A stretch of DNA of 64,000 bases from an uncultured Planctomycetales bacterium (GTDB lineage Bacteria; Omnitrophota; Gorgyraeia; Zapsychrales; JAHFFX01): the NCBI GenBank assembly GCA_964612665.1, contig CAZTCI010000002.1, positions 432,334-496,333 of the forward strand, written 5' to 3'. A program made the position numbers and the translations under genes. Below, one piece after another: positions 191 through 32,121 of this stretch. The notes below the pieces were generated by a model that was not told the origin of the DNA, did no database searches, and worked only from the letters and a program-made list of their open reading frames with translations. The stretch's first letter is position 1; each line of letters starts with the position of its first letter.

Positions 191-1264
191 TCAAGCGTTT
201 GTTTCCTGAATTTGATGCTGGCTATAAATATTTTTAATTTCCGGAAGGATTTTGACAAATGTTTCAACCAAATACGGTTCAAAATGTTTTCCTGATTGAC
301 TTTTAACTTCCTCCACCGCTTTTTGAAACGGCCATGGCTGTTTATAAGGTCGTTGAGAAGTCAGCGCATCAAAGACATCACAAATTCCACAAATCCGGCC
401 CACCATCGGAATTTGGTTTTCCTTGATATGGTTTGGATATCCCGACCCGTCCCACTTTTCATGATGAGTCAACGCGATTGTTTCGGCCATTTTCATAAAT
501 GCGGAACGGCTGCCGCCTAATAATTTGGCGCCGATCGTGGTGTGGGTTTTCATAATTTCGAATTCTTCGGTAGTTAATTTTCCTGGCTTAAGCAAAATAC
601 TGTCAGGAATTCCTAGTTTCCCAATGTCATGTAAAGGGCTTGTTGTTAACAGTAAATCGACTTGACCATTGTTCATTCCCGTGGCGCGGCCCAGGCATGT
701 CGCATACTGACTCATTCGGACAATATGCTCACCGGTTTCTTGATCGCGGAATTCGGCAGCTCTGGCTAAACGGTGAATAACATCTAATCTCGTATCGTGT
801 AATTCTAGTGTGCGTTCGTTTACTTTTTCTTCCAATATTCTGTTTTGATCCCATAATGCCTTGTCCAGCATTCGAACTTCCAGCAAATTCCGAATACGCA
901 GCAAAACTTCAAAACGATCATACGGTTTGTGAATGAAATCTCGCGCACCGGCTTCGAGAGACCGAAGTTTGACCTGCGCATTTTCCTCCTCTGTAACAAT
1001 TAAAATTGGAAGATAACTACTTGGTTTCAATTTTTTTAATTCATCAATAACTTGGAAGCCGTTTAAAAACGGCATATTGATATCGAGAAGAATTAAATCG
1101 GGTTTAAATTTTTGGTAGGCTTGACAGGCATCCCTTGGATCCATAAGACTGCGATAATTAAGGTATCCTGCTTTTTTAAGCATGTCCTCAAGCATCCGGA
1201 CACTGATAATGTCGTCGTCAATGATTAGGATTGGGGCATTTAAAATTTGATTTTCTAAAATCAT
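191..1264 (-). CDS. Response regulator with CheY-like receiver and HD-GYP c-di-GMP phosphodiesterase domain (RpfG-like)
   Basis: N-terminal receiver (IIDDD...LLDINMP), C-terminal HD domain with HDIGK and HHEKWDGSGYP signature. Confidence 0.85.
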   Translation of the reverse strand: MILENQILNAPILIIDDDIISVRMLEDMLKKAGYLNYRSLMDPRDACQAYQKFKPDLILLDINMPFLNGFQVIDELKKLKPSSYLPILIVTEEENAQVKLRSLEAGARDFIHKPYDRFEVLLRIRNLLEVRMLDKALWDQNRILEEKVNERTLELHDTRLDVIHRLARAAEFRDQETGEHIVRMSQYATCLGRATGMNNGQVDLLLTTSPLHDIGKLGIPDSILLKPGKLTTEEFEIMKTHTTIGAKLLGGSRSAFMKMAETIALTHHEKWDGSGYPNHIKENQIPMVGRICGICDVFDALTSQRPYKQPWPFQKAVEEVKSQSGKHFEPYLVETFVKILPEIKNIYSQHQIQETNA

Positions 1265-1319
1265 ACATGCTTATTTTAGAATAAATAAATTTTATGCCCA
1301 ACAAAATGTAAATTATTTT

Positions 1320-2081
1320 TCAGATAGTTAAATTTTTAAAATTAGATAACTTTTGTAACGATGAATAATCGGTGAGATCGCAATGAATTGGTGTTGCGGT
1401 GACATATCCATGATGCAAAGCATACGTATCAACATCTAAATTTTTTTTCGGCGGCGGCATACGGCCGGTCATCCAATAATAATTGCGCAGATTAGGGTCA
1501 GTGCGTTTACGGAAAGATCCGTGGATAGGAATTAATCCTTGACGGGTGACTTTTATCCCTTTAATTTGTTTGGAAGGAATGGCGGGAACGTTTACATTAA
1601 GGAACGTTCCCGGTGGCAAATTGGCTTTAGACAAAAATTTGGCTAATTTAAAACCAATTTGTGCGGCGGGGTTAAAGTTTGGGTTAACAAAAGTCGCCAG
1701 AGAAATGGCCATGGAGGGAATTCCTAGCAAAGCCGCTTCCCTTGCGCCGGCGACGGTTCCGGAATAAAATACACTGCAGCCATCGTTGGCGCCGCAATTA
1801 ATTCCAGAGACAACTAAATCCGGTTTGCGTTTCAAAATAACACTGACGGCAAACTTCACGCAATCTGCCGGCGTACCGCTGATGCCATACCCTTTAAATT
1901 CTGCATGCCGATTAATTTTTGAAAAGCAAATCGGATGAGAAAGCGTGATTCCATGCCCAACGGAGCTTCTTTCAGTATCAGGTGCCACGACCGTGACCTT
2001 GCCCAATTTTTTTAACGTTTCATATAAGGCTCGAATGCCGTCCGCATAAATGCCGTCATCGTTGGTCAATAAAATTTCCAT
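1320..2081 (-). CDS. surE: 5'/3'-nucleotidase SurE
   Basis: MEILLTNDDGIYADGIRAL N-terminus and overall SurE-like sequence, 253 aa. Confidence 0.9.
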   Translation of the reverse strand: MEILLTNDDGIYADGIRALYETLKKLGKVTVVAPDTERSSVGHGITLSHPICFSKINRHAEFKGYGISGTPADCVKFAVSVILKRKPDLVVSGINCGANDGCSVFYSGTVAGAREAALLGIPSMAISLATFVNPNFNPAAQIGFKLAKFLSKANLPPGTFLNVNVPAIPSKQIKGIKVTRQGLIPIHGSFRKRTDPNLRNYYWMTGRMPPPKKNLDVDTYALHHGYVTATPIHCDLTDYSSLQKLSNFKNLTI

Positions 2082-2175
2082 AGAATGTCTTTGTTTTTTA
2101 TATTTAAAATTTCAATGAGCATTAACCTATCATAATCTGTCAATTTATTCAAACGCCCGGCGAATTATTTGGAAA

Positions 2176-2952
2176 CTAAAAATAATGTTCAAACTCCAGA
2201 ATCCACTTAAGTGTTCCATTAGGAGCGGCATCCGACACGCCGAATAGATAGCCGACGTCATATTTAATGTTATTTCCCAATTTTCCATAAAAAGCCGGGC
2301 CGACGCGATGCGTTTGTTCATTAAAATCCTTCCCTTCATTTAATCCGCCAAAATCAGCATGATACTCGAAGCCTGGCTCAAAATATTGATTCAACCGATA
2401 CCGGCTTGACCAGGCAAACCCGCCGTCGGTTTCATTAGTATGGCCACCACCGACTTCATGATCAAAATTAAAGTTAGCGATATTCTCAAAACGGCCAATC
2501 GTTTTATCCAGCAAAATTTTCCATCCCAGATTATCAGCGTGTTTATCTTCCGTTGAAATTTCATACTCAACTAAAAAACCAATATCGACGGGATATTGTC
2601 CAGGTTCAGTGAGTTGAAATTTATTTTCCCACTCGAGTAAAGTAAACCGGAAGTTAAGGTCTTCATTATCCGCGTTACGTTTTTTTTCAACTTCACCGTA
2701 AAGCTCACTAAACCAACGGTCCGTAAATCCGTAGCCCAAGGCGTATTTTTGTTTTTGGAGATTATCTTTCTCGGCATCACGATCAAAATCAATATTACCC
2801 TTGGCCTCAATCTCTAATTCCCCTTTTGTAACGTAAGGATTATAAACTTTTAAAATGGCATCGGCATTTTTAATGTTGATTGCGCTTAGTTCGATAATAA
2901 AAAAACTAGCCAATATAAATCCTTTAACAAAAAAATTTCTCAATGAAGACAT
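2176..2952 (-). CDS. Outer-membrane beta-barrel protein of unknown function (signal peptide, C-terminal Phe)
   Basis: Signal peptide, Y/G/N/F-rich amphipathic strands, terminal ...EHYF typical of OMP C-terminus. Confidence 0.55.
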   Translation of the reverse strand: MSSLRNFFVKGFILASFFIIELSAINIKNADAILKVYNPYVTKGELEIEAKGNIDFDRDAEKDNLQKQKYALGYGFTDRWFSELYGEVEKKRNADNEDLNFRFTLLEWENKFQLTEPGQYPVDIGFLVEYEISTEDKHADNLGWKILLDKTIGRFENIANFNFDHEVGGGHTNETDGGFAWSSRYRLNQYFEPGFEYHADFGGLNEGKDFNEQTHRVGPAFYGKLGNNIKYDVGYLFGVSDAAPNGTLKWILEFEHYF

Positions 2953-2982
2953 ATTTTACCTTTCTAATATGTTAATGAGTGT

Positions 2983-3333
2983 TTATTTAACGACAATAAT
3001 ACCTTTAGCCGTTTTTTTGTGAAAGTCGCCAAAATAAGAATACCATCCAGATTTTAAAGGTCCGAGAAAAACGGTTATCTTTCCTTCGCCGGGAACAACT
3101 TTTTCGCGGTTTAAATCAAAACTCTCGAATTCTTCCGGTGTGGCATCATTATTTTGTATGCTAAGTTTAATTTTCTTATTGGCAGGAATAGTTAATTCTT
3201 CGGGGAGGAAGTGATGGTTCTTTATTGCTAATGTGAAAATTTGGTCTTCTGCAAAACTCGTTCGGATACTGCTTAAACATAAAGCGAATTCTACAATCCA
3301 TAGAATAAACATCATTCGAAAAAATCTATTCAT
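2983..3333 (-). CDS. Secreted cupredoxin-like small protein (copper-ligand Cys absent)
   Basis: Signal peptide; C-terminal GWYSYFGDFHKKTAKGIIVV resembles the cupredoxin G.Y.Y.C..H..M.G motif but has no Cys. Confidence 0.4.
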   Translation of the reverse strand: MNRFFRMMFILWIVEFALCLSSIRTSFAEDQIFTLAIKNHHFLPEELTIPANKKIKLSIQNNDATPEEFESFDLNREKVVPGEGKITVFLGPLKSGWYSYFGDFHKKTAKGIIVVK

Positions 3334-3416
3334 TTGTCTCCTTTACTATTAATTATGAAAATCATTTTCATATCTGAGGCAGAAAATTTGAACTCTATTG
3401 AGCGGTACTCCCTTCT

Positions 3417-3770
3417 TCACGAACTTTTAGGATTTGATCGGCATTTTTGGCAGACGCCAAAAACTTTAAAGTTATGTTTGGTAGGAATAAAACTATTTTG
3501 TTTTGCTAGTTTATCTTGCAGATCTTCGAGCGTCAAATTGTCGAGATAATTATGCTGACCGCAAACGACGCACACCAAATGATTATGATGTTCACAACCA
3601 TTTTTACATTTAAATTGGCGGACGCGAAAACCAAAATCTATTTCAGCACCCGTGCCATCATCTTTAATGACCTTAATTGTTTTATAAACGTTATGGCGTC
3701 CCAAATTATTAGAATTAAGCAGTTGGTTGACTGTCATAGATTTTGTGTCTATAGGATTCGTTTTTTTCAT
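3417..3770 (-). CDS. Fur-family paralog, N-terminally truncated (metal-binding/dimerisation domain, partial DNA-binding domain)
   Basis: HHNHLVCVVCG...FGVCQKC Fur C-terminal Cys/His motifs; only about 40 aa precede it versus about 90 in the adjacent Fur. Confidence 0.6.
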   Translation of the reverse strand: MKKTNPIDTKSMTVNQLLNSNNLGRHNVYKTIKVIKDDGTGAEIDFGFRVRQFKCKNGCEHHNHLVCVVCGQHNYLDNLTLEDLQDKLAKQNSFIPTKHNFKVFGVCQKCRSNPKSS

Positions 3771-3796
3771 TCAAGCTCCTACTCAGACTTAACAAA

Positions 3797-4249
3797 TTAA
3801 CTACATTTTTTGCATAACCCAAAAATCTCTAAACGGTGATTTTGCGGTAGAAAATTTTGTTCCTTCGCTAAACGGGAACTTAAATGTTGGATTTTATCGT
3901 CGAAAACTTCAAAATTGGTGTTGCATTTTGTACAGATGAAGTGAGCATGATACTCGCGGCCCACTTTACGTTCGTAACGTTTAACACCATCTTGAAAGTC
4001 AACAACATCAGCAATCCCACTATCCACAATTAATTTTAAAGTACGATATACCGTCGTATAACTTATGTCCGGATATTTTTCTTTAACTAGCCGGAAAAGA
4101 TCTTCAGCGCTGATATGCTGGTCGGTTTTCAAAAAAATTTTTAAGACTAAATCTCTTTTTTGAGAATGCTTCAAACGCTTATGCGCAACATGTTTTCCAA
4201 AAATCTCTTGCTCTTGAGTCATGGAATGCATTAATAAGCCTTCTTTCAA
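3797..4249 (-). CDS. Fur-family transcriptional regulator (Fur/Zur/PerR type)
   Basis: wHTH ISYTTVYRTLKLI, HAHFICTKC...GLCKKC metal sites, 150 aa. Confidence 0.8.
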   Translation of the reverse strand: MKEGLLMHSMTQEQEIFGKHVAHKRLKHSQKRDLVLKIFLKTDQHISAEDLFRLVKEKYPDISYTTVYRTLKLIVDSGIADVVDFQDGVKRYERKVGREYHAHFICTKCNTNFEVFDDKIQHLSSRLAKEQNFLPQNHRLEIFGLCKKCS

Positions 4250-4325
4250 CTTATTTGCAGAGGCATCCTAACATTGCCTAAAAAATGTGTCAACATCATT
4301 TTATAAAATCATTTACTTAATTATG

Positions 4326-6131
4326 TTAAATGTAATATTCCGGGTCCAAAACAACTTCACGCACCAACAAATCGACAATCTTTTTGACCGCTGACTGGCT
4401 CTCTTCATTTTCCGCCAAGACTAAATCAACTCTTTCTTGCGAAAAAAGATTTTCTCCGACGTTAATGACGAAAGTTTTGTTAGGCCTGTTCAATGACTTC
4501 AACATAGACAGTTCGTAGTCTTCGATATCGGTGATACTGGTAATCAGAATTAGTCCGGAATCAGTCATAATGTGCGCAAGTTCACCGAGCTGCTGCAGAT
4601 GTTCAAATTTACTTAAAATTTTGTCTTTGGAATCGTTCGTGGCTAAGGATAGCCGATTTGAAATACCAAGAAAATAAACAAACTTCCCTAAATTAAATAA
4701 GACTTCTTCCAACGCCTTAGCGATTCTCTGTTTACCAGTATCAATTTGTCCAGTGATAATAATAAAAGCTGCTTTGTGCTGGTATTTAAACGAACGGATT
4801 TCAGGAGTAATATGGCTGCGTTCCCATTCATAGTCACGCTTTTTGATATGCTGATTTAAAGTTGTTTGCTCATCAAAAACGCCGGCGAGAATAATGCCGC
4901 CGCCGGCAATCTCATAATTATCCACGATCACGAAGCGGCCGGTTTCGGTAATTTCGGTTGTAAGGTCAAAGGCAATTGGTTTCATCGTTTCAAGAACACA
5001 TTCAGCAACTTCATGGCGGTCAACGTGCAGCTTGGCCGATGAGGAAAGTTCTGAGGCATTCATGACACTGATAATTTCAGCCAAGACAACCGGGACCTGT
5101 TGCGTGCCAAGTTTTAATTTATAAGTTTTTCCTTTAATAAAAGATTGTTTGCCCATCCAAAAAATATTCACCTTGAACTTTGAACTAACTAACGGCTGGC
5201 GGTCGCCGAGCCTGCACATAATCTCACCCGGGCGAATATAAATTTGTGTTTCAAGGCATACGCCGGTGCTTTGGCCAGCGAATATTTCAGTTTTAACGGG
5301 CGTATTAAAACTTTCAATAGATTTGATTTTAGATTTTTTTCCAGAAGGCAAAAAAACAACTTCTTCGCCAACTTGTCCCACGCCAGTTTCTACCCGGCCA
5401 GCAAAAATCCGGCGATCGTCTTCATCTTCGGTAAATTTATAAATATCCTGGACCGGCATGCGAAATGGCTGTTCCACTTTTGTGGAAGCCTTTTTAAAAT
5501 TATCGAGCGCTTGCAAAACAGAAACATCTTTGTCCCAGGGCATTTTAGAAGAAAGCGAAACAATATTATCACCTTCCCGTGCGGCGATTGGAATCACACT
5601 TGCAGGAACAAGATTAACTTCCTTAAGGAACTGGAGGTATTCTTTTTTGATCTGTTCAAAGGTTTCTTGACGGTAATCAACCAAGTCCATTTTATTTATA
5701 CAGACGGTTACGTTCCTGATTCCCAGAAACGAAAGCATATAACCGTGCCGCTTGGAATTCTCACGAATGCCTTCAAACGCATCGATCACTAAAAGCGCGG
5801 CTTCAGCGCGTGCGGCGCCGGTAATCATATTCTTTAAAAATTCAATGTGCCCCGGCGCATCAATAATAATGTAATCGCGTTTGGCTGACTTAAAAAAGGA
5901 GCGCGCGGTGTCGATTGTGATCCCTTGGGTTTGCTCATCCTTCAAGGCATCAAGCAAAAAGGCATATTCAAAAGGCTTGGCTGTGCGGCGGCAGCGTTCC
6001 TGAACTTCCTCAAGTTTACCTTTGGGTAGCGACCCTGTGTCTGCGAGCAGACGGCCGATCAACGTGCTTTTCCCATGATCCACATGCCCGACGATAACAA
6101 CATTCATTTGTTCACGCTGGTTGATACTCAT
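4326..6131 (-). CDS. cysN: Sulfate adenylyltransferase large subunit CysN fused to a degenerate APS-kinase-like (CysC-like) domain
   Basis: GTPase motifs [18 protein letters not shown]; C-terminal domain aligns to CysC but its P-loop is GQIDTGKQ (GK-S/T replaced by GK-Q) and the DGDN motif is LGIS. Confidence 0.85.
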
Positions 6132-7024
6132 TACATGTACCCTTCCCGCCGAAGCGTTTCTAATCCTCCGCCGTCTTCTTTGTCTTGCGCACGGCCGGAA
6201 CGCTCGGCGATGTTAGCGAATTTCCCTGAACGTAATTCTTCAATAATATCCGAAACATTTTTCGCGGTTGATTCAACCGGAGTCGTGCAAGGATAGCACC
6301 CTAACGATCGGTAACGTTTTCCATTCCCTTGATCAAAATAAAGTGAAGTAATAGGAATTTTTTCACGCTCGATATATTCCCAAATATTTAATTCGGTCCA
6401 ATCTAAAAGCGGATGGATCCTGACATGAGTTCCCGGCGCGAAATCGGTTTTGAATTGATTCCAAAGTTCAGGCGGCTGGTCACCGACATCCCAGTCACTG
6501 TTTCGGTCACGCGGCGAAAAATAACGTTCTTTAGAACGGCTCCCTTCTTCATCCGCTCGGGCACCGACAATAACACCGGTGTAAGGTTCTTTGTTGGGAT
6601 CTAATTCATATTTTCCACTACTATGATTTAACCGGTAACGCGGCCATTCGCCAGATAACGTATGTTTTAAGGCATCCGTCTTTAAAGCCTTGCAGCAACC
6701 AATGCGATCCAGTGCTCCATCGGGAAAAGTTCTTTTGGCTTCGAGCGCGGCTTTATTTTGACCGACAATCATGTTCAATTTCCATTTGATGGCCAGCTCG
6801 TCACGATATTTGATCATTTCCGGAATTTTATAGCTGGTATCAATATGCACCAGCGGAAAAGGAACGTGACCCAAGAAAGCCTTGCGGGTCAGCCACAAAA
6901 GGACCGTGCTGTCTTTGCCAATTGACCAAAGCATGACGAGACTTTTAAATTCCCGGAACGCCTCGCGCAAAATAAAAACGCTCTGCGCTTCTAAACTTTC
7001 TAATTTATCCATTTGACGGTTCAT
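6131..7024 (-). CDS. cysD: Sulfate adenylyltransferase small subunit CysD
   Basis: PAPS-reductase/ATP-PPase fold, [14 protein letters not shown], 297 aa, overlaps the cysN start. Confidence 0.9.
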
Positions 7025-14120: not shown

Positions 14121-14814
14121 CGGAGTCTTCCAACTCTTTAAAACGATAACCAACACCACGCACTGTCTCAATCAAATCTGCCGCGTCATCCAATTTTTTA
14201 CGAAGGGCGCGGATATGTACATCAACCGCCCGGTCAACAATATACTTCCCGTCCTTCCAAACCTTATCCATAATTTGATCGCGGCTAAAAACCCGACCTG
14301 GGTAACGGGATAAAAATTCCAAGATATTAAATTCAATGGTCGTTAAATCAATTGACCGGTCTTTATAGGTGATCTTATGTTTCGGTAAATCTATTTTTAA
14401 GAATCCAATTGCGCGGACTTGGTCAGGCATGGCCTTTTCTGACAACCGGCGCATCACAGCTTTAATACGGGCATTAAGAACTTTGGGGCTGAAAGGTTTC
14501 GTAATGTAATCATCGGCACCTAACTGCAACCCGACGACAACATCGGCCTCTTCACTCTTGGCGGTTAAAAAAATAATCGGTATTTTACTGCTCTTGGGAT
14601 CTTGTTTAATGATACGGCAGGTTTCTAAACCATCTATGCCTGGCAACATCAAATCTAAAAGGACAAGCTCGGGCGTTTCTTTGCTTATAATTTCTAAGGC
14701 CTCTTCACCACTCGCCGCCGAAATCACATGATAACCTTCGCGCTCAAGATTATATCGAACCAACTCAATAATGTCTTTTTCATCCTCGATGATTAAAATC
14801 TTTGCTTTGGCCAT
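14113..14814 (-). CDS. phoB: Phosphate-regulon response regulator PhoB (OmpR family)
   Basis: MAKAKILIIEDE receiver, winged-helix C-terminus; start taken at the internal ATG at 14814. Confidence 0.85.
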   Translation of the reverse strand: MAKAKILIIEDEKDIIELVRYNLEREGYHVISAASGEEALEIISKETPELVLLDLMLPGIDGLETCRIIKQDPKSSKIPIIFLTAKSEEADVVVGLQLGADDYITKPFSPKVLNARIKAVMRRLSEKAMPDQVRAIGFLKIDLPKHKITYKDRSIDLTTIEFNILEFLSRYPGRVFSRDQIMDKVWKDGKYIVDRAVDVHIRALRKKLDDAADLIETVRGVGYRFKELEDSDE

Positions 14815-25387: not shown

Positions 25388-25417
25388 TTGGCAGCGCAAA
25401 ATTACATATGTTATACT
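25388..25417 (+). promoter_or_regulatory. Sigma70-like promoter (TTGGCA, 18 nt, TATACT) driving the long structured leader
   Basis: -35 TTGGCA at 25388-25393 and -10 TATACT at 25412-25417. Confidence 0.4.
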
Positions 25418-25423
25418 TTAACC

Positions 25424-25733
25424 GGTAGTTAAGAAATTGTAGTCGTTCGTTCTTTAACTTTTAAAAAGGTAAACTACTTCGAAAGAGTAGGACCCCTGAA
25501 CCACGTTCGGTTTCAGGGCTTTGAACTTTTCTAGTTCAAAGCCCGTGAATAATTCGTGGGACAGGGCCCTAAACCCAACGTAGTTTAGGGACAAAGCCGT
25601 GAGCCTAATTTTCTTTTATAGAAATATGGTTGTCTGGCTGCCGTTGTCGATAACGTGATATCGATTGTTTTGGTAAGCACGGGTTCTTGGTCCCTTCTTT
25701 CGAAGTTCAATACCTTAAAAGGGGATTAAGAAA
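25424..25733 (+). promoter_or_regulatory. Highly structured 5' leader, candidate riboswitch with c-di-GMP-I (GEMM)-like P1 (GNRA) and P2 (tetraloop-receptor) pieces split by about 95 nt of extra hairpins
   Basis: At least 6 consecutive hairpins; G-U wobble pairs form only on the plus strand. 25467-25493 resembles the GEMM 5' half (GGUAAACUACUUCGAAAGAGUAGGAC); 25588-25629 resembles GGGAC-AAAGCC...CCUAA...UAUGG. Confidence 0.35.
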
Positions 25734-25985
25734 ATGCGAAAAATTATTAGCATGACCTGTGCTGTTTTTCTTTTAAGCAGTCTAAATTTGAATGCCGCTG
25801 TAACACGAGATGTCGCTTACCATGTTGCGGTCATTATTCCCCCGCACGTTGATACAGCTGTTCTTAATTATTTTCAACCTGAAAAAAACGATGCCAAAGC
25901 GGCCGACGACGATTTTGTCATCACAACTGAAAAGGTCATCCGGAATAAAAAACCGGTTATCATACAGACAATAACTACGAAATGA
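25734..25985 (+). CDS. Small secreted protein (83 aa) of unknown function
   Basis: GGGGA RBS about 9 nt upstream of the ATG, signal peptide MRKIISMTCAVFLLSSLNLNA. Confidence 0.55.
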   Translation: MRKIISMTCAVFLLSSLNLNAAVTRDVAYHVAVIIPPHVDTAVLNYFQPEKNDAKAADDDFVITTEKVIRNKKPVIIQTITTK

Positions 25986-26044
25986 GGGCTCACCGTTAAT
26001 CGGCGAAGTCCTCAGCCCTTCTGGGATCCGCAGGAGGGCAATCT

Positions 26045-26106
26045 CTTTTAAAACAAAAGCGGGCCAGCCCTCGTCGCTGCGTAAATCAAGGGCTGGCCCG
26101 CTTCTT
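26045..26106 (-). terminator. Rho-independent terminator (15-bp GC stem) after the 978-aa gene; partly bidirectional
   Basis: AAGCGGGCCAGCCCT / AGGGCTGGCCCGCTT inverted repeat followed on the minus strand by TTTTGTTTTAAAAG. Confidence 0.7.
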
Positions 26107-26123: not shown

Positions 26124-29060
26124 TTATCGCCGCCTTACCGGAAAATTCAAAATAGAAGTGGCCCCTTCCTTCAAATCAACCGTATTTTTTATTTTAGTTA
26201 CGGGAAGATACTGTAACGGCAAAGAGTTAATATCTAAGGTAATCGTATGTTTCCCCGGCGGAATGTCGGTGAAGAAATAACTGCCCTGATAATCGGTCGT
26301 CATGGTTTCGTTGCGATCCAGCGTAACTTTTACGCGCGGGATCAAGATTTCACCGGGATCGACTTTATTGTTTCCGTTAGTATCTTCAAAAACAGCGCCA
26401 TAAATTCCTGAATGGGTGGCGACCGCAAAGTTAAATGTTTTTACCTTGTCCTGTTCAATGATTACGTCTTCATATAAAGGCGTATTGACCACATACCCGG
26501 CGGGAATATTTTCAGGATTGATGGCAATTGAAATTTTTTTGGCGCGGATCGTGGTTTGATAAAAACCAAGATGATTCGTCATAACTTCTCGTTCACCCAC
26601 CTTGACTTTAATTCCTTCCAGGCCTGGTTCGTCCGTATCCTTTTTATTATTGCCGTTTAAATCCTTAAAGACCGTCCCCTGAATGATGCCAAGCGGACTA
26701 TAACTAAATGGCAAATCCCAGGCCGAACGGATGCCCCAACGCAGATCACCTTCAGCGTAGGGATGGTTCTCCCGATTTTCCGCCCAAACATTACGTATTT
26801 CGCCGTCGACAAATAATTCAAAATCTTGTTTAGGCCGGTAAGATAATCCCAGCGTTCCCGAAATACTGTCTTCGCCTGCGAGAAAACTGTGCAAGCTTTC
26901 GCTTTGTTCTTCATTACGATAATAAAAGCCAATTGTGCCGGACAAGCGTTGGTTTAGCTGTTTATTATAATTAATACCCGTTGTATAAACCTGCGGGTTC
27001 GAACGTTCTTTTGAGGAAGTTTCCGTCAGCCATGAATATTCATAATTAAAGAAATAATAAAGCCCTTGTAAAATCCCAATGCGAAAGCCTGTGGTCAACC
27101 CATAACGGTCGAACTCCGAGATCGGCGACAAGGGAAAACGGCTGCGTTGATACACATTACCTACAAACGCCGAAAAAAGCTGCCCGCCTGAAAGTTGAAA
27201 GCTTTTCGAATATGTATCTGAGATTCGCGCGTCACGTCGGGGTGAAATCGTCCCGGGCGTATCAACATAAAAAAGATTAGTACTTAAGCCTGAAGTATCA
27301 TCCAACGGCACTTCAAATGAACTGCTTAAATCATAATTAATTTTATCCGGATGATTCGGGTTCGGAAAAGCCCGGTCTTTATAAATATCGAAATTAGAAT
27401 AAGCGCCCCACTTATCATGCCGATAATTCCAAGTTGCAATACCGCCCAGTTCTCCGCGGTCCGATGGAAAACTACTGACCGTTGTAAAATCTTTATCGAT
27501 GTTACGAAAATTCAACTGTAGATTATTATCCCGACCTCCGAACTGCGTGTTGACCAAGCTTGCAAACCGTTCCTCGTCGTGCGCCACTTCCGCATCAAGG
27601 TACATCTGTTTAAATTTATGACTAGTCTCAACCGAATAGGCCCTCTTTTTAAGGAAGTTCGGGCGGGCCGTTCCATAACCTTGGGCGTAATTCAAGGAAA
27701 CGGAATGATCTTCATGAGGAAACAATGTCGTGCGCAGACCTTCTATATAAGAATCCGTTCTCTTAGTAAGTCCTGGGACCAGATATCCAAATGTCGACTG
27801 GTCCAGCCCCCACAAGGCTGAATAACCTAACTTATTATGAAAGGCTTCGGCATTCAGCAACACACCGCGAAAATATTTTCCAGGAAGCGTGAGCGGTGTA
27901 AAATGCTGGGCCGCGTCGAAACCGCGGATATTGAAATCTTTAAAGTTACCTATCTTTCCATTGGTTAGTCCAACAGTGTAGCCCGTTGCTTTGGTCGTAT
28001 CTTCGAATTTATTAAAAATGGCAGAGGTGTCAAATTCACCATAAGGCGTGGCGCCATAGATTCCGGTATACTGAAGATAATTTAAACTCTGTCTTTTTTG
28101 GCTTCGAACACTATGACCAGTGTAATAAGAACTCCAATCAGACGAATAGGTAAATCTAAAAGGTTTTTCTTTTTCTTCCACTGTCTTTTTAGTTTCCGAC
28201 TGAGCAGTGATAGCCAAAGGATAAATGACCTTCACATTAAATGTCCAGCGTCCGTGCTGTTCCCAAATATGCAGTAGCGTTTCTCCTCGAGCAACCGCTG
28301 TTAATGCTAAGTGGTCATTGTCTAACCGTTTTATCTCAATAAAACCTGGTGTAATAATCAAGTAGCGTTCAATATTTCGGCCGGAAAGAGTGACCGTGGA
28401 ATTTAATTCTACATTTAATTCACTGCGCGGTTGCTGGGCCCATAATCGGTCATCGAGATATATCGTTTGCAGTTCCTGTCCACCTGCTTTTTGGATATGT
28501 GTTAGGCTGGGTTGCGCTTGATGAGGTTCTGATTTTGTGATCGGAAGCGTTGACTTTTTAGAAATTTTGGCCGGTTGAGATACAACAACGGGTGTAGTTG
28601 TGACTAATTCAACCCGCTGGTGGGCTTCGATCGGTTCTAATTGTTGTACAGATTGAGTCTGAACCGTTTGTTTTTGTTGAGATGGCCGTGCTAAGGAAGT
28701 CTTTTGGGAAGTCGCCGGGATAGAAGCGCGTTTGATTTCTTTGACGGAGAGTTTTCCAACAACGACTTGTTGTTTTACCGACGGTGGAAAGGTTTTGACT
28801 GGCGGAAGCTCCTCAATCTTCCCTTCTTTAAAAAGTTCAATTTGATGAAGATAATTCTTGGGTTCTTGAGCTTTCGGGTCAGACAGAGACGCTAAATTAA
28901 AATATAAAATGGCCTTATCGTAATTACCCTGATCAATTGCAGTCTTGCCTAAGTGAATGAGCTCTTGATAAGAAAGGACTTCATCACTTTGAGCGGGGAC
29001 GGGCCAAAACAATAAATAAACAACCACGACCATTCGAAGAAGAAAAGGAAGTTTGCGCAT
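26124..29060 (-). CDS. Large outer-membrane assembly-platform-like protein: signal peptide, TPR, secretin-N/CpaC_N-like domain, beta-barrel, two C-terminal Cna-B/SdrD-B-like beta-sandwich domains
   Basis: TVTLSGRNIERYLIITPGFIEIKRLDNDHLALTAVARGETLLHIWEQHG matches the pilus-secretin N-domain pattern; Y/G/N-rich barrel region; GTVFKDLNGNNKKD and GAVFEDTNGNNKVD repeats. Confidence 0.5.
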   Translation of the reverse strand: MRKLPFLLRMVVVVYLLFWPVPAQSDEVLSYQELIHLGKTAIDQGNYDKAILYFNLASLSDPKAQEPKNYLHQIELFKEGKIEELPPVKTFPPSVKQQVVVGKLSVKEIKRASIPATSQKTSLARPSQQKQTVQTQSVQQLEPIEAHQRVELVTTTPVVVSQPAKISKKSTLPITKSEPHQAQPSLTHIQKAGGQELQTIYLDDRLWAQQPRSELNVELNSTVTLSGRNIERYLIITPGFIEIKRLDNDHLALTAVARGETLLHIWEQHGRWTFNVKVIYPLAITAQSETKKTVEEKEKPFRFTYSSDWSSYYTGHSVRSQKRQSLNYLQYTGIYGATPYGEFDTSAIFNKFEDTTKATGYTVGLTNGKIGNFKDFNIRGFDAAQHFTPLTLPGKYFRGVLLNAEAFHNKLGYSALWGLDQSTFGYLVPGLTKRTDSYIEGLRTTLFPHEDHSVSLNYAQGYGTARPNFLKKRAYSVETSHKFKQMYLDAEVAHDEERFASLVNTQFGGRDNNLQLNFRNIDKDFTTVSSFPSDRGELGGIATWNYRHDKWGAYSNFDIYKDRAFPNPNHPDKINYDLSSSFEVPLDDTSGLSTNLFYVDTPGTISPRRDARISDTYSKSFQLSGGQLFSAFVGNVYQRSRFPLSPISEFDRYGLTTGFRIGILQGLYYFFNYEYSWLTETSSKERSNPQVYTTGINYNKQLNQRLSGTIGFYYRNEEQSESLHSFLAGEDSISGTLGLSYRPKQDFELFVDGEIRNVWAENRENHPYAEGDLRWGIRSAWDLPFSYSPLGIIQGTVFKDLNGNNKKDTDEPGLEGIKVKVGEREVMTNHLGFYQTTIRAKKISIAINPENIPAGYVVNTPLYEDVIIEQDKVKTFNFAVATHSGIYGAVFEDTNGNNKVDPGEILIPRVKVTLDRNETMTTDYQGSYFFTDIPPGKHTITLDINSLPLQYLPVTKIKNTVDLKEGATSILNFPVRRR

Positions 29061-29084
29061 AGTTGATTTTCATTTGAGGCCGTA

Positions 29085-29897
29085 TCAATCTCTTTCCTCA
29101 CGAATAACAAAATGACCGGAATCATCTTTCGTAAAATCGATCTCTTTCACTAAGCTATCGTCTTGCCCCAAATCAAAAGTAAGAACGATCGTATAAGCCC
29201 CAGCTCGAAGATTAGGTGAAATTTTTATTTTAAAAGGTGTCTTTTTGCCTGGCGGTAAATAAAATGGCTGAGTTTTCCCACGGTCAACAATCAGACTATT
29301 TTTATCCATAATGTAATAAGTACAGGATGGGATAAGAATGATGTTCCCGATATTGAGAAAATCACCGCTAACGGCATTATCCTTAAGGGCTGCGTTTTGA
29401 ACTTTCCCTGCCTTATTACGGTTCGAAGGTTCGACAAAAAACAGACTTCCCACTCGAGTGATAATACTTAAACCTGTTTGACTGCGCATAGCTTTGCTGA
29501 CGGATTTTTCAAAAAATAAAACACCATAATGACCGCCTTGAATATTATCTGGAACTTTGATTGAATAGCGGACTTTCTGTTGTCCATAAGAAGGCAAGTT
29601 AAATTCTTGAGGAGAAAATTGAACCCATTGATACATTGTGTAAGGAGTTGATCCGGCCGGTAAAAAATCTTTCTTACCACCATATGGAGGGATATACGTA
29701 AAATCTTCCCAATAAGCTCTAACAATTTGAGCTTCTGGAGAAGTATTGTGTACAGTAATCGTGCCACTAAGAGATTGCCCCGGCGTCACCTGAAGATTGA
29801 TTTTGCCTTCTTCAATCAACAGTTGAGCCGAGGCAGTCTTATGGCCGGTTAAAATCAATAGCGTCGAAAGAATAACGCTGATCAATATACGTTTCAT
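29085..29897 (-). CDS. Periplasmic PapD/FimC-like pilus chaperone candidate
   Basis: Signal peptide; LQVTPGQSLSGTITVHNTSPEAQIVRAYWED and HYGVLFFE match the chaperone N-domain pattern (R.I..........V.N.s..P.L.Q.W.D and ESLFYLN); ATG at 29897 (GTG at 29924 possible). Confidence 0.5.
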   Translation of the reverse strand: MKRILISVILSTLLILTGHKTASAQLLIEEGKINLQVTPGQSLSGTITVHNTSPEAQIVRAYWEDFTYIPPYGGKKDFLPAGSTPYTMYQWVQFSPQEFNLPSYGQQKVRYSIKVPDNIQGGHYGVLFFEKSVSKAMRSQTGLSIITRVGSLFFVEPSNRNKAGKVQNAALKDNAVSGDFLNIGNIILIPSCTYYIMDKNSLIVDRGKTQPFYLPPGKKTPFKIKISPNLRAGAYTIVLTFDLGQDDSLVKEIDFTKDDSGHFVIREERD

Positions 29898-29927
29898 ATT
29901 GCAGTGGCCATTTTTCTTTGTCACTTA

Positions 29928-30563
29928 TTATGTTGCCGTCGCTGAGATTAACAAGGTTCCGTCATAGCTTCCGGCCTTATCGGCATTAGAGAAAACTTCA
30001 CCAGCTGTCGGATCAGGAATTGGAGCTGTGGCATCTTTCGTCACAATTCCTAAATAAACTCTTAACCATCCTCCAGCCGTCTCGGTTGATGCAATTGTTT
30101 CACCATGAACATCCTTTAAGAGTTTTTTAGGCCCATGCGCACTTATAGGACTTTCAGTGGTATCCGTCGGATTGGGGCCAACAAAAACAACCTTCATAAA
30201 CGTGGCGGTTGATTTCCAACCTAGACCGTGGGCAGGATTATTTGGGTTAGCGCCTTCCGTATAAGTGACAACCGCGCTTGGACTGCCCGCTCCTCCGGAA
30301 CTTACCACATCAATGGCAAAAAAATGATCCGGAAGATAAATACCAATTGCGGGATTAAGTGTCATTGGCGAAAAGTTTAAAGTTGTTCCTGTGACAGCCG
30401 TAAAAACCGGCGGCGTTCCTTTAACCGAAAAAGCGTTAATACCAACACTCGTCGCGGCCGGAACTGTTGCAGAAATAACGAATGTCTTATCAAGGGCAAA
30501 ACTTTTGGCAGAAGCAAAAACTGCGACACAAAAAACAAGTAAACCTAGTAATATCTTTTTCAT
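29928..30563 (-). CDS. Pilin-like secreted subunit candidate (about 211 aa)
   Basis: AGGAGG RBS before the ATG at 30563; signal peptide; T/S/A/G/V-rich beta protein ending AGSYDGTLLISATAT, like the C-terminal G.Y..T.T..V.Y strand of chaperone-usher pilins. Confidence 0.45.
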   Translation of the reverse strand: MKKILLGLLVFCVAVFASAKSFALDKTFVISATVPAATSVGINAFSVKGTPPVFTAVTGTTLNFSPMTLNPAIGIYLPDHFFAIDVVSSGGAGSPSAVVTYTEGANPNNPAHGLGWKSTATFMKVVFVGPNPTDTTESPISAHGPKKLLKDVHGETIASTETAGGWLRVYLGIVTKDATAPIPDPTAGEVFSNADKAGSYDGTLLISATAT

Positions 30564-30648
30564 GATGTTTTCCTCCTTTTGAGTATGAGTTACATGTTGA
30601 ATGTCAGCTTTCAAAAACACCGACCTGCAGTTCATTATCATAATACAA

Positions 30649-32034
30649 CTACATTTCGCTTAGCGAGTACATTACAGCGAGATTGTAGTCTCCAGGTTGC
30701 ATTTCGGGATAAGGGCTTAATTGATAAAGTACCCGAAACGTTGTCAAAGTACCTTGAATATCAGAGAACAAAATTGGTACAGTCCCGGATGGTACAGCAC
30801 TAAAGTCATTAAATTCGGTCTTTCCCGTTTGACCTTCTAATACTTCAATCTTCATGCGAAAAGCGTCTGATGGAATTTTTTCTCCTTTTTCGCTGGTTAA
30901 TGATGAATTAATGTTTTGAGTTACCATAAACGGTTTGCCTAAATTAGTGTTAACCACAACTTTAATTTCTTTGATCTGACTTGGCGTTCCAGGCAATAAT
31001 TTTGAGAAACGCAATCCATCCGATGGATATTGTACATCGAGATTAAAGATCGGAGTCACTTCAATATTGAGATCAAAATCCACGGTTTCCGGGCGATCAC
31101 CTTTTTCAATCGTGTAACGGATTTTACCCCGGTAATATCCAGCTTTTTGATTGGTTAACGTTTTATCATCCAGCGCAAAGTCAACAATAAAGGAACCACT
31201 GTTTTCTGAAGCGCTGTAAAGTAGTTGATGCTTTCGTTCGAGGGAAACAGGATTCAAATAAGAAAGCTGTCCTTGATCTCCGGCCAGCTCGTGGGTCGAA
31301 AACACTAAACTTCCCGGAAGTAAATCTTCATCCAATTCATTGTGCGGAAATTCTAACACATCTTGATAAATGCGGAGATCGCCTGGATTCCCCTCGTACC
31401 CTATTTTGACATAACCTGTTTGGTCTTTTCCGTTATGTGTACTCAACTTGACTGATTGTTTTCCTGATGAACCTTCTATGGTGAATTTATTTTCCTTCGA
31501 CACTTCAAACGACATATTCAAAACAGCATCTTCAACGCTACCAGCGCCGATAGGACGCAATACATATTGTAATTTGCCAAGGTAATCACCTGACTGTTCA
31601 ATTTTGTTTTTATCGATATTATAAACGACTTGGAAGGAATCACTATCGCCGTTCGGATTTGAAGTATAAAGCAGTTGATCTGAATAACCGAAAGATGTCG
31701 GTTCTTGAACGTACAAGGTTCCGGCAGAATTTGAAGCATTGAGCGTATAAGTTGTTATTCCAGAGGGATTCATGGAGTAACCTCTTTCATTCACTAAGGG
31801 TTCCAGAATTCTTTGAAAGATCTGATACTGTTTACCGTCGTTTGAAATGATGCGTATGCGGGCTTCTTTATTGGCCACGGACTGGTTATCCACCCGTCCA
31901 AAACGAAGACTATTCCCACCTTCGACCGGATTTACGGACAGATTGGTTACAGCATATGTGGATACGGGCGCAAGACCAAAAAAGATCAAAAATAAAAGAT
32001 AGGGTAACCGTTGATTGAACATAAGAAGCCTCAC
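30649..32034 (-). CDS. Secreted protein with three tandem pilin-like domains
   Basis: Signal peptide; three roughly 140-aa repeats each ending with a G-[DY]-Y-x-G-x-[LI]-x-Y-x-[LI] strand (SGDYLGKLQYVL, AGYYRGKIRYTI, PGDYNLAVMYSL). Confidence 0.45.
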   Translation of the reverse strand: MRLLMFNQRLPYLLFLIFFGLAPVSTYAVTNLSVNPVEGGNSLRFGRVDNQSVANKEARIRIISNDGKQYQIFQRILEPLVNERGYSMNPSGITTYTLNASNSAGTLYVQEPTSFGYSDQLLYTSNPNGDSDSFQVVYNIDKNKIEQSGDYLGKLQYVLRPIGAGSVEDAVLNMSFEVSKENKFTIEGSSGKQSVKLSTHNGKDQTGYVKIGYEGNPGDLRIYQDVLEFPHNELDEDLLPGSLVFSTHELAGDQGQLSYLNPVSLERKHQLLYSASENSGSFIVDFALDDKTLTNQKAGYYRGKIRYTIEKGDRPETVDFDLNIEVTPIFNLDVQYPSDGLRFSKLLPGTPSQIKEIKVVVNTNLGKPFMVTQNINSSLTSEKGEKIPSDAFRMKIEVLEGQTGKTEFNDFSAVPSGTVPILFSDIQGTLTTFRVLYQLSPYPEMQPGDYNLAVMYSLSEM

Positions 32035-32121
32035 GAGACGACTTTATTATAGAGGAAAGAAAAACGAATGTAAAGAGAGTCTTATAGACGGGTGAGTTCT
32101 TAAAAACTATATTTTAAATGG

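Follow-up and report, generated by a model that had tools for sequence, protein, structure and literature searches.

A candidate chaperone-usher-type assembly system of deep divergence, with a c-di-GMP-I riboswitch module, in the Omnitrophota

The described systems that come closest to the locus reported here are the chaperone-usher pathways: the classical Fim and Pap systems (chaperones FimC and PapD, ushers FimD and PapC), the alternative or alpha pathway, represented by Ecp (EcpA-E, with the chaperones EcpB and EcpE and the usher EcpC) and by CFA/I (chaperone CfaA), and the archaic or sigma pathway, represented by Csu of Acinetobacter (chaperone CsuC). In the archaic and alternative chaperones, a highly conserved arginine of strand F1 (Arg89 in CsuC and EcpB) binds the C-terminal carboxylate of the subunit (PMC4654587). 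A second point of reference is provided by the WxLIP clusters of Firmicutes, which have one small and one large secreted partner and in which a strand of a two-domain protein is predicted to be inserted into the partner (PMC10599100). Here we describe a cluster of four genes, g1 to g4, and a convergent fifth gene, g5, in a stretch of 64,000 nucleotides (nt) from contig CAZTCI010000002.1, the whole of which is called the window below. We consider it reasonably likely that these genes code for an assembly system of the chaperone-usher type that makes a surface fibre or adhesin, is deeply divergent and is conserved across the Omnitrophota.

The Omnitrophota are uncultivated, mostly ultra-small bacteria. 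In a survey of the phylum, many of them were proposed to be predators or symbionts that need attachment to other cells, and type IV and Tad pili were the only appendages named (PMC10066038). A literature search found no prior description linking the Omnitrophota to an usher, a fimbria or the riboswitch context described below, and no prior link of a cyclic di-GMP (c-di-GMP) riboswitch to a chaperone-usher system. The cluster would be a third adhesion system of the phylum, one that has gone unannotated, and would bring the chaperone-usher pathway a new lineage as well as a new usher design with a secretin-type N-domain and a larger, plugless barrel. It thereby bears on usher gating, on the evolution of the pathway and on its relation to the Gram-positive WxLIP proteins.

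Gene order and conservation of the cluster

The four genes occupy positions 26124-32034 of the window, all on the minus strand, with the g5 module on the plus strand. The first gene, g1 (30649..32034), encodes 461 amino acids (aa) and is followed by g2 (211 aa, 29928..30563; the open reading frame (ORF) runs from 30641 to 29928, with a database-supported start at 30563), g3 (270 aa, 29085..29897; ORF 29924..29085, supported start 29897) and g4 (978 aa, 26124..29060). The first-pass annotation, made from the sequence of the window, had described four co-oriented, tightly spaced genes behind a promoter-like TATAAT. The ORF listing bears out this layout, with gaps of 3-30 nt at the g2/g3 and g3/g4 junctions, and all four N-termini are signal-peptide-like on direct reading of the sequence. 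The TATAAT is part of a sigma-70-like promoter candidate on the minus strand (TTTACA-17-TATAAT, 32074..32046), which lies in the gap ahead of g1, agrees with the consensus at 11 of 12 positions and is the best site in the region, as a consensus match only. The first-pass annotation made no mention of g5, of the c-di-GMP riboswitch or of conservation across the phylum.

Genomes were scanned at one per GTDB species, which gave g3 relatives in 112 genomes, and 79 loci were retrieved; counts for g5 and its aptamer are based on the 67 loci with sufficient flank. In a hidden Markov model (HMM) survey of all ORFs in the 79 loci, g1-g2-g3-g4 were found on one strand and in the same order in essentially every locus, so the arrangement, whose recurrence the first-pass annotation had suggested looking for, is not due to chance. 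The flanking genes vary between loci, and the cluster is therefore a self-contained unit. Homologue clusters numbered 169 for g3, 30 for g4 and 119 for g2, each protein being of one length class. Scanning genomes with g4 as a single protein gave no matches, and search patterns could not be derived from the g4 alignment, which is too variable.

Named homologues of g2, g3 and g4 originate from metagenome-assembled genomes of Candidatus Omnitrophica or Omnitrophota, and a few JGI records already name the g3 homologue "P pilus assembly chaperone PapD". The labels of the 112 g3-bearing genomes are mostly Omnitrophota, with some generic "uncultured Planctomycetales" bins. Complete clusters were also seen on a contig labelled "Methanosarcinales archaeon" (L022, JAIWAR010000056.1), on one labelled "Candidatus Elulimicrobium sp." (L039, DYOU01000007.1) and in many CAZ*/CAY* records deposited as "uncultured Planctomycetales". 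These labels probably reflect binning or labelling issues and not a true spread beyond the Omnitrophota.

In several loci (L003/L032, L005, L007, L026, L030, L040, L041, L075, L076 and L077), g2 has one to three additional paralogues, placed before g1, after g2 or, in L005, between g3 and g4. Such loci resemble pilus operons with several minor subunits. An atypical locus, L080 (PMCS01000010.1), has three g3-like chaperone genes, each beside g2-like genes, and a g5-like ORF on the same strand, with no g4 within the 10 kb examined; this may be a form of the system with several chaperones. Among the neighbouring genes, a two-partner secretion pair (a ShlB/POTRA transporter and an exoprotein with a TPS domain) lies just upstream of the cluster in L001, at 1124-6273. 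Three small genes stand between the pair and the cluster, and the pair is not conserved elsewhere.

The chaperone-like, usher-like and candidate subunit proteins

Structures of g3 and g4 were modelled with AlphaFold2 (AF2) and compared with solved structures by Foldseek. The first-pass annotation had recognised in the N-domain of g3 the pattern of a PapD/FimC chaperone, and the model agrees: it has a mean predicted local distance difference test score (pLDDT) of 94, shows the boomerang of two immunoglobulin-like domains that is typical of chaperone-usher chaperones, and finds its best solved match in the pilus chaperone CfaA. Only the F1-G1 loop is of lower confidence, and this loop is flexible in free chaperones. 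The second-best structural match is a solved WxLIP protein (PDB 9i1y_A, DUF916-DUF3324), which is as close in fold to the g3 model as the best pilus chaperone.

By sequence, g3 is placed by neither Pfam nor NCBIfam. Neither PapD_N nor PapD_C (PF00345, PF02753) was matched at E<=0.1 by any of 52 members of the g3 family, and there is no NCBIfam equivalog. The recurrent Pfam matches are weak ones, to fn3_5, to WxLIP_PGBD (19 of 52 members, best 2e-7) and to WxLIP_HBD (7 of 52). The only PDB sequence match is the chaperone EcpB, found at E 0.02 by the single sequence and at E 0.11 by the profile. Profiles were also compared by hhalign, with genuine E. coli K-12 fimbrial operons as the source of chaperone and usher comparators. 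The g3 family aligned with EcpB plus EcpE at 77% probability (E 2e-5, 178 columns spanning both domains), while its comparison with four classical chaperones gave a non-significant 1%. The Ecp signal is meaningful for alignments as shallow as these, since the control comparison of classical with Ecp chaperones reached only 10.7%.

Individual residues follow the same alignment, with roles in non-classical chaperones taken from Pakharukova et al. (PMC4654587). The superfamily-invariant proline that kinks strand D1 corresponds to P96 of g3, in the motif "FSPQxF" (at least 90% conserved), and aligns with Pro60 of EcpB ("LTPASL") and with "TPPLF" of FimC. An "NxGN" motif is also common to g3 and EcpB. 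At the 77% alignment probability, which should be kept in mind for single positions, R148-V149-G150 of g3 aligns with R116-I117-G118 of the EcpB G1 donor region and the invariant Y213 ("YLPPG") with the carboxylate-anchoring Tyr169 of EcpB ("YLMPG"), while the position of EcpB Arg148 is a conserved tyrosine (Y195) in g3, so that this arginine is not kept. No C-terminal hydrophobic or membrane helix is present in the g3 sequence. We conclude that g3 is a PapD-like periplasmic chaperone, nearest to the alternative-pathway branch and outside all sequence-defined families.

The architecture of g4 was read from a Pfam survey of 30 family members together with the AF2 model, and the domains named in the first-pass annotation were recovered. 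A tetratricopeptide repeat (TPR)-like helical module at residues 31-78 (28827..28970, minus strand, as are all g4 features) is supported by a Pfam TPR match at 34-62, by PDB profile matches and by AF2 helices, and a TPR motif is found in most of the 30 members. It is followed by a disordered linker rich in Q, S, K and P (residues 86-197, pLDDT <50) and by a periplasmic beta domain of the pil_N type at residues 198-279 (28224..28469), with strands in the model. The Pfam match to this domain (PF13629, T2SS-T3SS_pil_N) covers residues 213-278 at E 1.9e-4, with 21.5 bits against a cut-off of 23, and recurs in all 30 members (best E 9e-8). The barrel follows at residues 300-786 (26703..28163), and two beta sandwiches of the SdrD_B/Cna-B type complete the protein at 790-977 (26130..26693); SdrD_B matches twice in the window protein (1.6e-12), and two SdrD_B-type domains are present in 30 of 30 members (best 3e-17). 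The barrel, mostly above 90 in pLDDT in a model of 80.3 overall, comprises 26 predicted strands (DSSP) and lacks an insertion of plug size in the model, the longest inter-strand loop being of 17 residues (421-437).

The order predicted from the model, a periplasmic N-domain, a large barrel and two C-terminal beta sandwiches, is the domain order of ushers. The pil_N domain (of the CpaC/RcpA N-terminal type) takes the position of the usher N-terminal domain, and the SdrD_B domains take those of the two C-terminal domains, CTD1 and CTD2, a parallel that the first-pass annotation had already drawn. In the Foldseek search, full-length FimD and PapC made up the top 11 matches (~770-850 columns, E 4.8e-18 to 7e-14), with the next match at 8e-10 and non-usher barrels at 4e-8 or worse, that is, 4-8 orders of magnitude behind. 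The usher-specific signal therefore stems from the collinear N-domain/barrel/CTD1/CTD2 layout and not from the barrel alone.

Sequence searches gave no such signal. None of the 30 members matched Usher (PF00577), PapC_N or PapC_C; CooC_C was reached by two of them at a non-significant E of 0.16. The g4 profile matched only TPR and SdrD entries in the PDB, with no usher and nothing for the barrel. Against five E. coli ushers, hhalign gave <1%, a negative that is uninformative because the control comparison of classical ushers with EcpC also scored only 2%. The first-pass annotation had held that g4 is not a PapC-type usher; this stands for the sequence and fails for the structure, where FimD and PapC are the top 11 matches. 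Nor does g4 belong with the secretins, since pil_N is present without any match to Secretin (PF00263) in the 30 members, and the model is of a monomeric barrel. The protein is best read, from its modelled architecture, as a very divergent usher-like protein that falls outside the usher family by sequence.

The two remaining products are candidate subunits, which the first-pass annotation had taken for pilin-like proteins of the classical donor-strand type; known pilins gave no significant match to either, by sequence or by profile. Three tandem domains had been noted in g1, and these beta-rich domains (at about residues 29-178, 179-331 and 332-461) are homologous to each other by hhalign (98.6, 98.1 and 94.6%). 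No Pfam, NCBIfam or PDB match was found for g1, which is a candidate tip or adhesin subunit. Of all proteins in the cluster, the candidate major subunit g2 is conserved best (45-70% identity), with a conserved strand at its mature N-terminus ("TF-V-SATVP") and a conserved C-terminal "G-Y-G-TL-ISAT". It has no significant Pfam, NCBIfam or PDB match; SCPU/DUF4402 was not matched in Pfam, and one family member reached it at E 0.96. An exhaustive HMM search among 1.84 billion cluster representatives returned 405 g2 relatives at E<=1e-3, and the best 150 of these were mostly of 190-240 aa with full-length matches, some fragments excepted. The g2 family is therefore closed, and the search showed no bridge to a large pilin family. 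In profile-profile comparisons, neither g2, the g1 domains nor g5 was significantly related to E. coli pilins, EcpA or EcpD. Neither g1 nor g2 gave a match to a WxL domain. By hhalign, the g1 domains and g2 showed no relation, so a pilin domain common to all subunits has no support from sequence.

The small secreted protein g5 and its riboswitch leader

Elsewhere, for example in Vibrio and Clostridioides, c-di-GMP riboswitches control surface-appendage genes. In the window, a c-di-GMP-I (GEMM-I) aptamer lies on the plus strand at 25462..25645, followed by an expression platform at 25646..25733 (window fold, z -7.4) with the anti-Shine-Dalgarno (anti-SD) element GGUCCCUUCUUUCGAAG, and then by g5 at 25734..25985, which encodes a small secreted protein of 83 aa; few other genes of the window are on the plus strand. 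A promoter-like site, TTGGCA-18-TG-TATACT (25388..25417, plus strand), stands ~45 nt upstream of the aptamer; it agrees at 10 of 12 positions and has an extended -10 TG, again as a consensus match only.

The identity of the aptamer is supported by Rfam RF01051, by our own covariance model, built from three orthologous aptamers, and by covariation. The window aptamer scores 35.7 bits to RF01051 at 25555-25645 (gathering score 35), with a half-match at 25458-25505. Orthologous aptamers reach 73.6 (L001), 73.4 (L005) and 43.7 bits (L003), and L004 scores 59.7 bits to the GGC variant, so that all five loci tested attain the gathering score for RF01051 or the variant. With our own model, the aptamer was found on the g5 strand in 63 of the 67 loci; aptamer and g5 were both present in 61, with the aptamer 10-400 nt upstream of g5. 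Across 50 aptamers, 94.8% of the cells pair and 16 of 22 pairs show compensatory changes; none of 500 shuffles reached the observed values, and a slid control fell far below them. By score, covariation and 5' leader position, the element has the properties of the RF01051 class, as judged from sequence.

The low Rfam score in the window is due to inserted hairpins, which leave only the 3' part to be scored: ~85 nt with 3-4 hairpins separate the first hairpin from the conserved junction ACAAAGCC. The L003 aptamer (14162-14296, minus strand) likewise has two extra hairpins between its first hairpin and the junction. Long, low-scoring matches were also seen in L009, L012, L036, L058, L060 and L064, and the inserted-hairpin aptamers may be a structural sub-variant of GEMM-I. 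A different arrangement was noted in L038, where two strong aptamers on the minus strand (5478-5570 and 4194-4285, 83.5 and 81.3 bits) lie 1.2 kb apart; the distal one has no obvious same-strand ORF after it and is antisense to a plus-strand TPR gene (4463-5317).

Most leaders can be drawn with a hairpin that sequesters the Shine-Dalgarno sequence (SD), in which the anti-SD UUCGUCCUCUUU pairs with AAGGAGGGCGAA-AUG; co-varying versions are found in other loci, and the hairpin is compatible with a folded aptamer. The SD:anti-SD duplex was stronger than in shuffled sequences in 26 of 36 leaders (median -20.6 vs -11.8 kcal/mol). In 17 of 36 leaders, the complementarity of the anti-SD to the aptamer is significant as well, and it falls mostly on the 3' half of the first hairpin; in the minimum-free-energy fold of the window leader this hairpin is opened by the anti-SD, leaving the SD free. 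As far as predicted pairing goes, the leader is most likely a translational OFF switch: with c-di-GMP bound, the aptamer would be closed and the anti-SD would block the SD.

A g5 homologue stands tail-to-tail with g4 in 62 of 67 loci, and an alignment of 64 sequences shows a signal peptide, a strand "T-SF-ISVTIP-HV" (VAYHVAVIIPPHV in the window), a variable linker and a conserved C-terminus "VRNN---V-L-TIVV"; for g5 itself the C-terminus reads "VIRN-K-I-L-TIVVK". Mature g5 has ~55 residues and no subunit body. Its N-terminal strand and that of mature g2 align in register, at 96.8% in hhalign with the signal peptides included and at E 8e-4 over 17 columns without them. No such match was found to g1 or g3, and no competing annotation of g5 in Pfam, NCBIfam or the PDB. 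In most loci 0-20 nt lie between the stop codons of g4 and g5, or the two overlap by up to 28 nt (touching or overlapping junctions are seen, for example, in L001 at 13898/13899, L013, L021 and L066), and the two transcripts must therefore overlap at their 3' ends in those loci. In the window, unusually, the spacer is of 138 nt and contains two hairpins that are terminator candidates (26015-26039, with a T-run, and 26061-26103; no strand assigned), and spurious symmetric "miRNA" matches in Rfam mark the palindrome between g5 and g4.

Proposed mechanism, rival explanations and comparison with known systems

Taken together, the order and conservation of the genes, the fold and motifs of g3 and the architecture of g4 suggest the following scheme. 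The candidate tip or adhesin g1 and the candidate major subunit g2 would be exported by Sec and captured in the periplasm by g3, which would deliver them to g4, where polymerisation, presumably by donor-strand exchange, and threading to the surface could take place. The strand of g5 may then be donated to the last subunit, so as to cap, terminate or anchor the fibre. Translation of g5 would be shut off when c-di-GMP binds, with g5 being made when c-di-GMP is low, and high c-di-GMP would favour continued assembly. In its boldest form, offered tentatively and rather unlikely to be right as it stands, this proposal makes g5 a donor-strand-only mini-subunit, repressed by c-di-GMP, that caps or terminates and possibly releases or anchors a fibre on a plugless 26-strand class of usher. 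If this were true, a second messenger would set the length or persistence of a pilus directly at the assembly step, and ultra-small bacteria that are probably host-dependent would have, with the plugless 26-strand usher, a new class of the pathway that spans their phylum. The riboswitch and mini-protein module provides a testable link from c-di-GMP to fibre assembly, and it places dozens of GEMM-I riboswitches of an uncultured phylum in a context linked to function.

Several points weigh against this reading. The carboxylate-binding arginine of strand F1 (EcpB Arg89) is replaced in g3 by an invariant glycine, G125, in "GGHYGVLFFE". For g4, 26 strands and no plug domain are predicted, and its N-domain is of the secretin-associated type and not an usher N-terminal domain. 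Against E. coli pilins, profile-profile comparison reached no significance for g2 (best 32%) or g1 (best 18%). That the switch works in the OFF direction is read only from predicted pairings that are significant in 26/36 and 17/36 leaders. The resemblance to known kinds is thus one of fold, sequence-defined membership failed, and the plug, the strand number and the F1 arginine differ; it is on these grounds that we describe the cluster as a new form of chaperone-usher system with a new regulatory module.

An alternative use of the same fold would be the export or display of surface proteins that do not polymerise, with g1 and g2 bound by g3 as a scaffold or holdase of the PapD/WxLIP kind, much as WxLIP has been proposed to bind the WxL proteins of Firmicutes, and with g4 as their outer-membrane exit or anchor; the products would then be a surface complex or secreted monomers and not a pilus. 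The closeness of 9i1y_A to the g3 model makes this worth weighing, and we think it unlikely: g3 is devoid of the C-terminal membrane helix of WxLIP proteins, g1 and g2 of a detectable WxL domain, and the organisms have an outer membrane and a g4 that is collinear with pilus ushers. The motifs that align between g3 and EcpB include the donor-strand region, and the two to four g2 paralogues of several loci are more like a multi-subunit pilus operon. A far more distant alternative is that g4 exports something else, such as an exopolysaccharide, in the manner of the TPR-plus-barrel proteins PgaA, BcsC, PelB and AlgE, with the neighbouring genes being unrelated. Those exporters have barrels of about 16-18 strands, and that of g4 is far larger; ushers and not polysaccharide porins are the top Foldseek matches, the five genes strictly co-occur, and no glycosyltransferase or polysaccharide genes were linked to the cluster in any locus examined. 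We regard this explanation as very improbable.

Within a chaperone-usher-like system, g5 could also do something else. As a positive structural part, it could be an initiator, an adaptor or a plug for the barrel, or the riboswitch could act mainly through convergent, antisense transcription into the 3' end of g4; we regard these options as somewhat unlikely, and the c-di-GMP logic could then be the reverse of the OFF proposal. LptD and MtrB, two solved barrels of 26 strands, are each filled by a partner. Both are among the structural matches of g4, whose model has no internal plug, and this would favour a g5 plug, against which it can be said that ~55 mature residues are few for a 26-strand barrel. 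For antisense action, the stops of g5 and g4 leave no room for a terminator in most loci; set against this, the g5 protein is conserved in sequence, with its signal peptide and two conserved strands, which argues that the product itself, and not transcription alone, is under selection. Seven leaders with spacers of about 10 nt or less have no separate SD-sequestering hairpin, which also counts for these alternatives; the N-terminal motif common to g5 and g2, which counts against them, is best explained by strand mimicry.

In comparison with known systems, the candidate chaperone-usher-type cluster has most in common with the alternative pathway. The two-domain chaperone fold is the same, as is an operon that combines subunits, a chaperone and an assembly protein of the outer membrane. 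EcpB/EcpE provide the only sequence and profile signal of g3, and the alignment with EcpB brings together the invariant proline, the "R-I/V-G" donor region, "NxGN" and the domain-2 tyrosine in "YLxPG". The cluster differs in that no component has Pfam-level membership and that EcpB Arg89 has become an invariant glycine. The subunits are unrelated to EcpA by profile comparison, and for g4 no relation in sequence to EcpC or to other ushers could be detected, in a test of little power; g4 departs from them in its ~26 strands, lack of a plug, pil_N-type N-domain and added TPR module and linker. The classical systems differ as well, with a non-significant 1% for g3 against their chaperones, no usher Pfam families in g4 and, if the model holds, a plugless barrel of ~26 strands in place of the classical 24 with a plug between strands 6 and 7. 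From the archaic Csu system the cluster is set apart by a g2 without an SCPU/DUF4402 match and a g4 that is not of the PF00577 type.

With the WxL/WxLIP clusters, the resemblance lies in the weak WxLIP_PGBD and WxLIP_HBD matches of the g3 family, in the second-best fold match and in the company of one small and one large secreted protein. WxLIP proteins consist of DUF916, DUF3324 and a C-terminal helix and go with WxL partners, neither helix nor WxL domain being present here, and they belong to Firmicutes, whereas the Omnitrophota cluster belongs to a diderm lineage and includes an outer-membrane, usher-like component. The likeness hints at an evolutionary link between WxLIP proteins and chaperone-usher chaperones, which we found discussed in no publication in our literature search. 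As for regulation, the aptamer here differs from other c-di-GMP-I riboswitches in that it precedes only a tiny secreted protein convergent to the operon, and not a pilin gene or the operon itself. The nearest parallel to g5 in its proposed role is PapH, a full-size pilin, in that an N-terminal strand would be donated and no site left for a next subunit; g5, whose role is hypothetical, differs from PapH in having ~55 residues, no subunit body and a riboswitch upstream.

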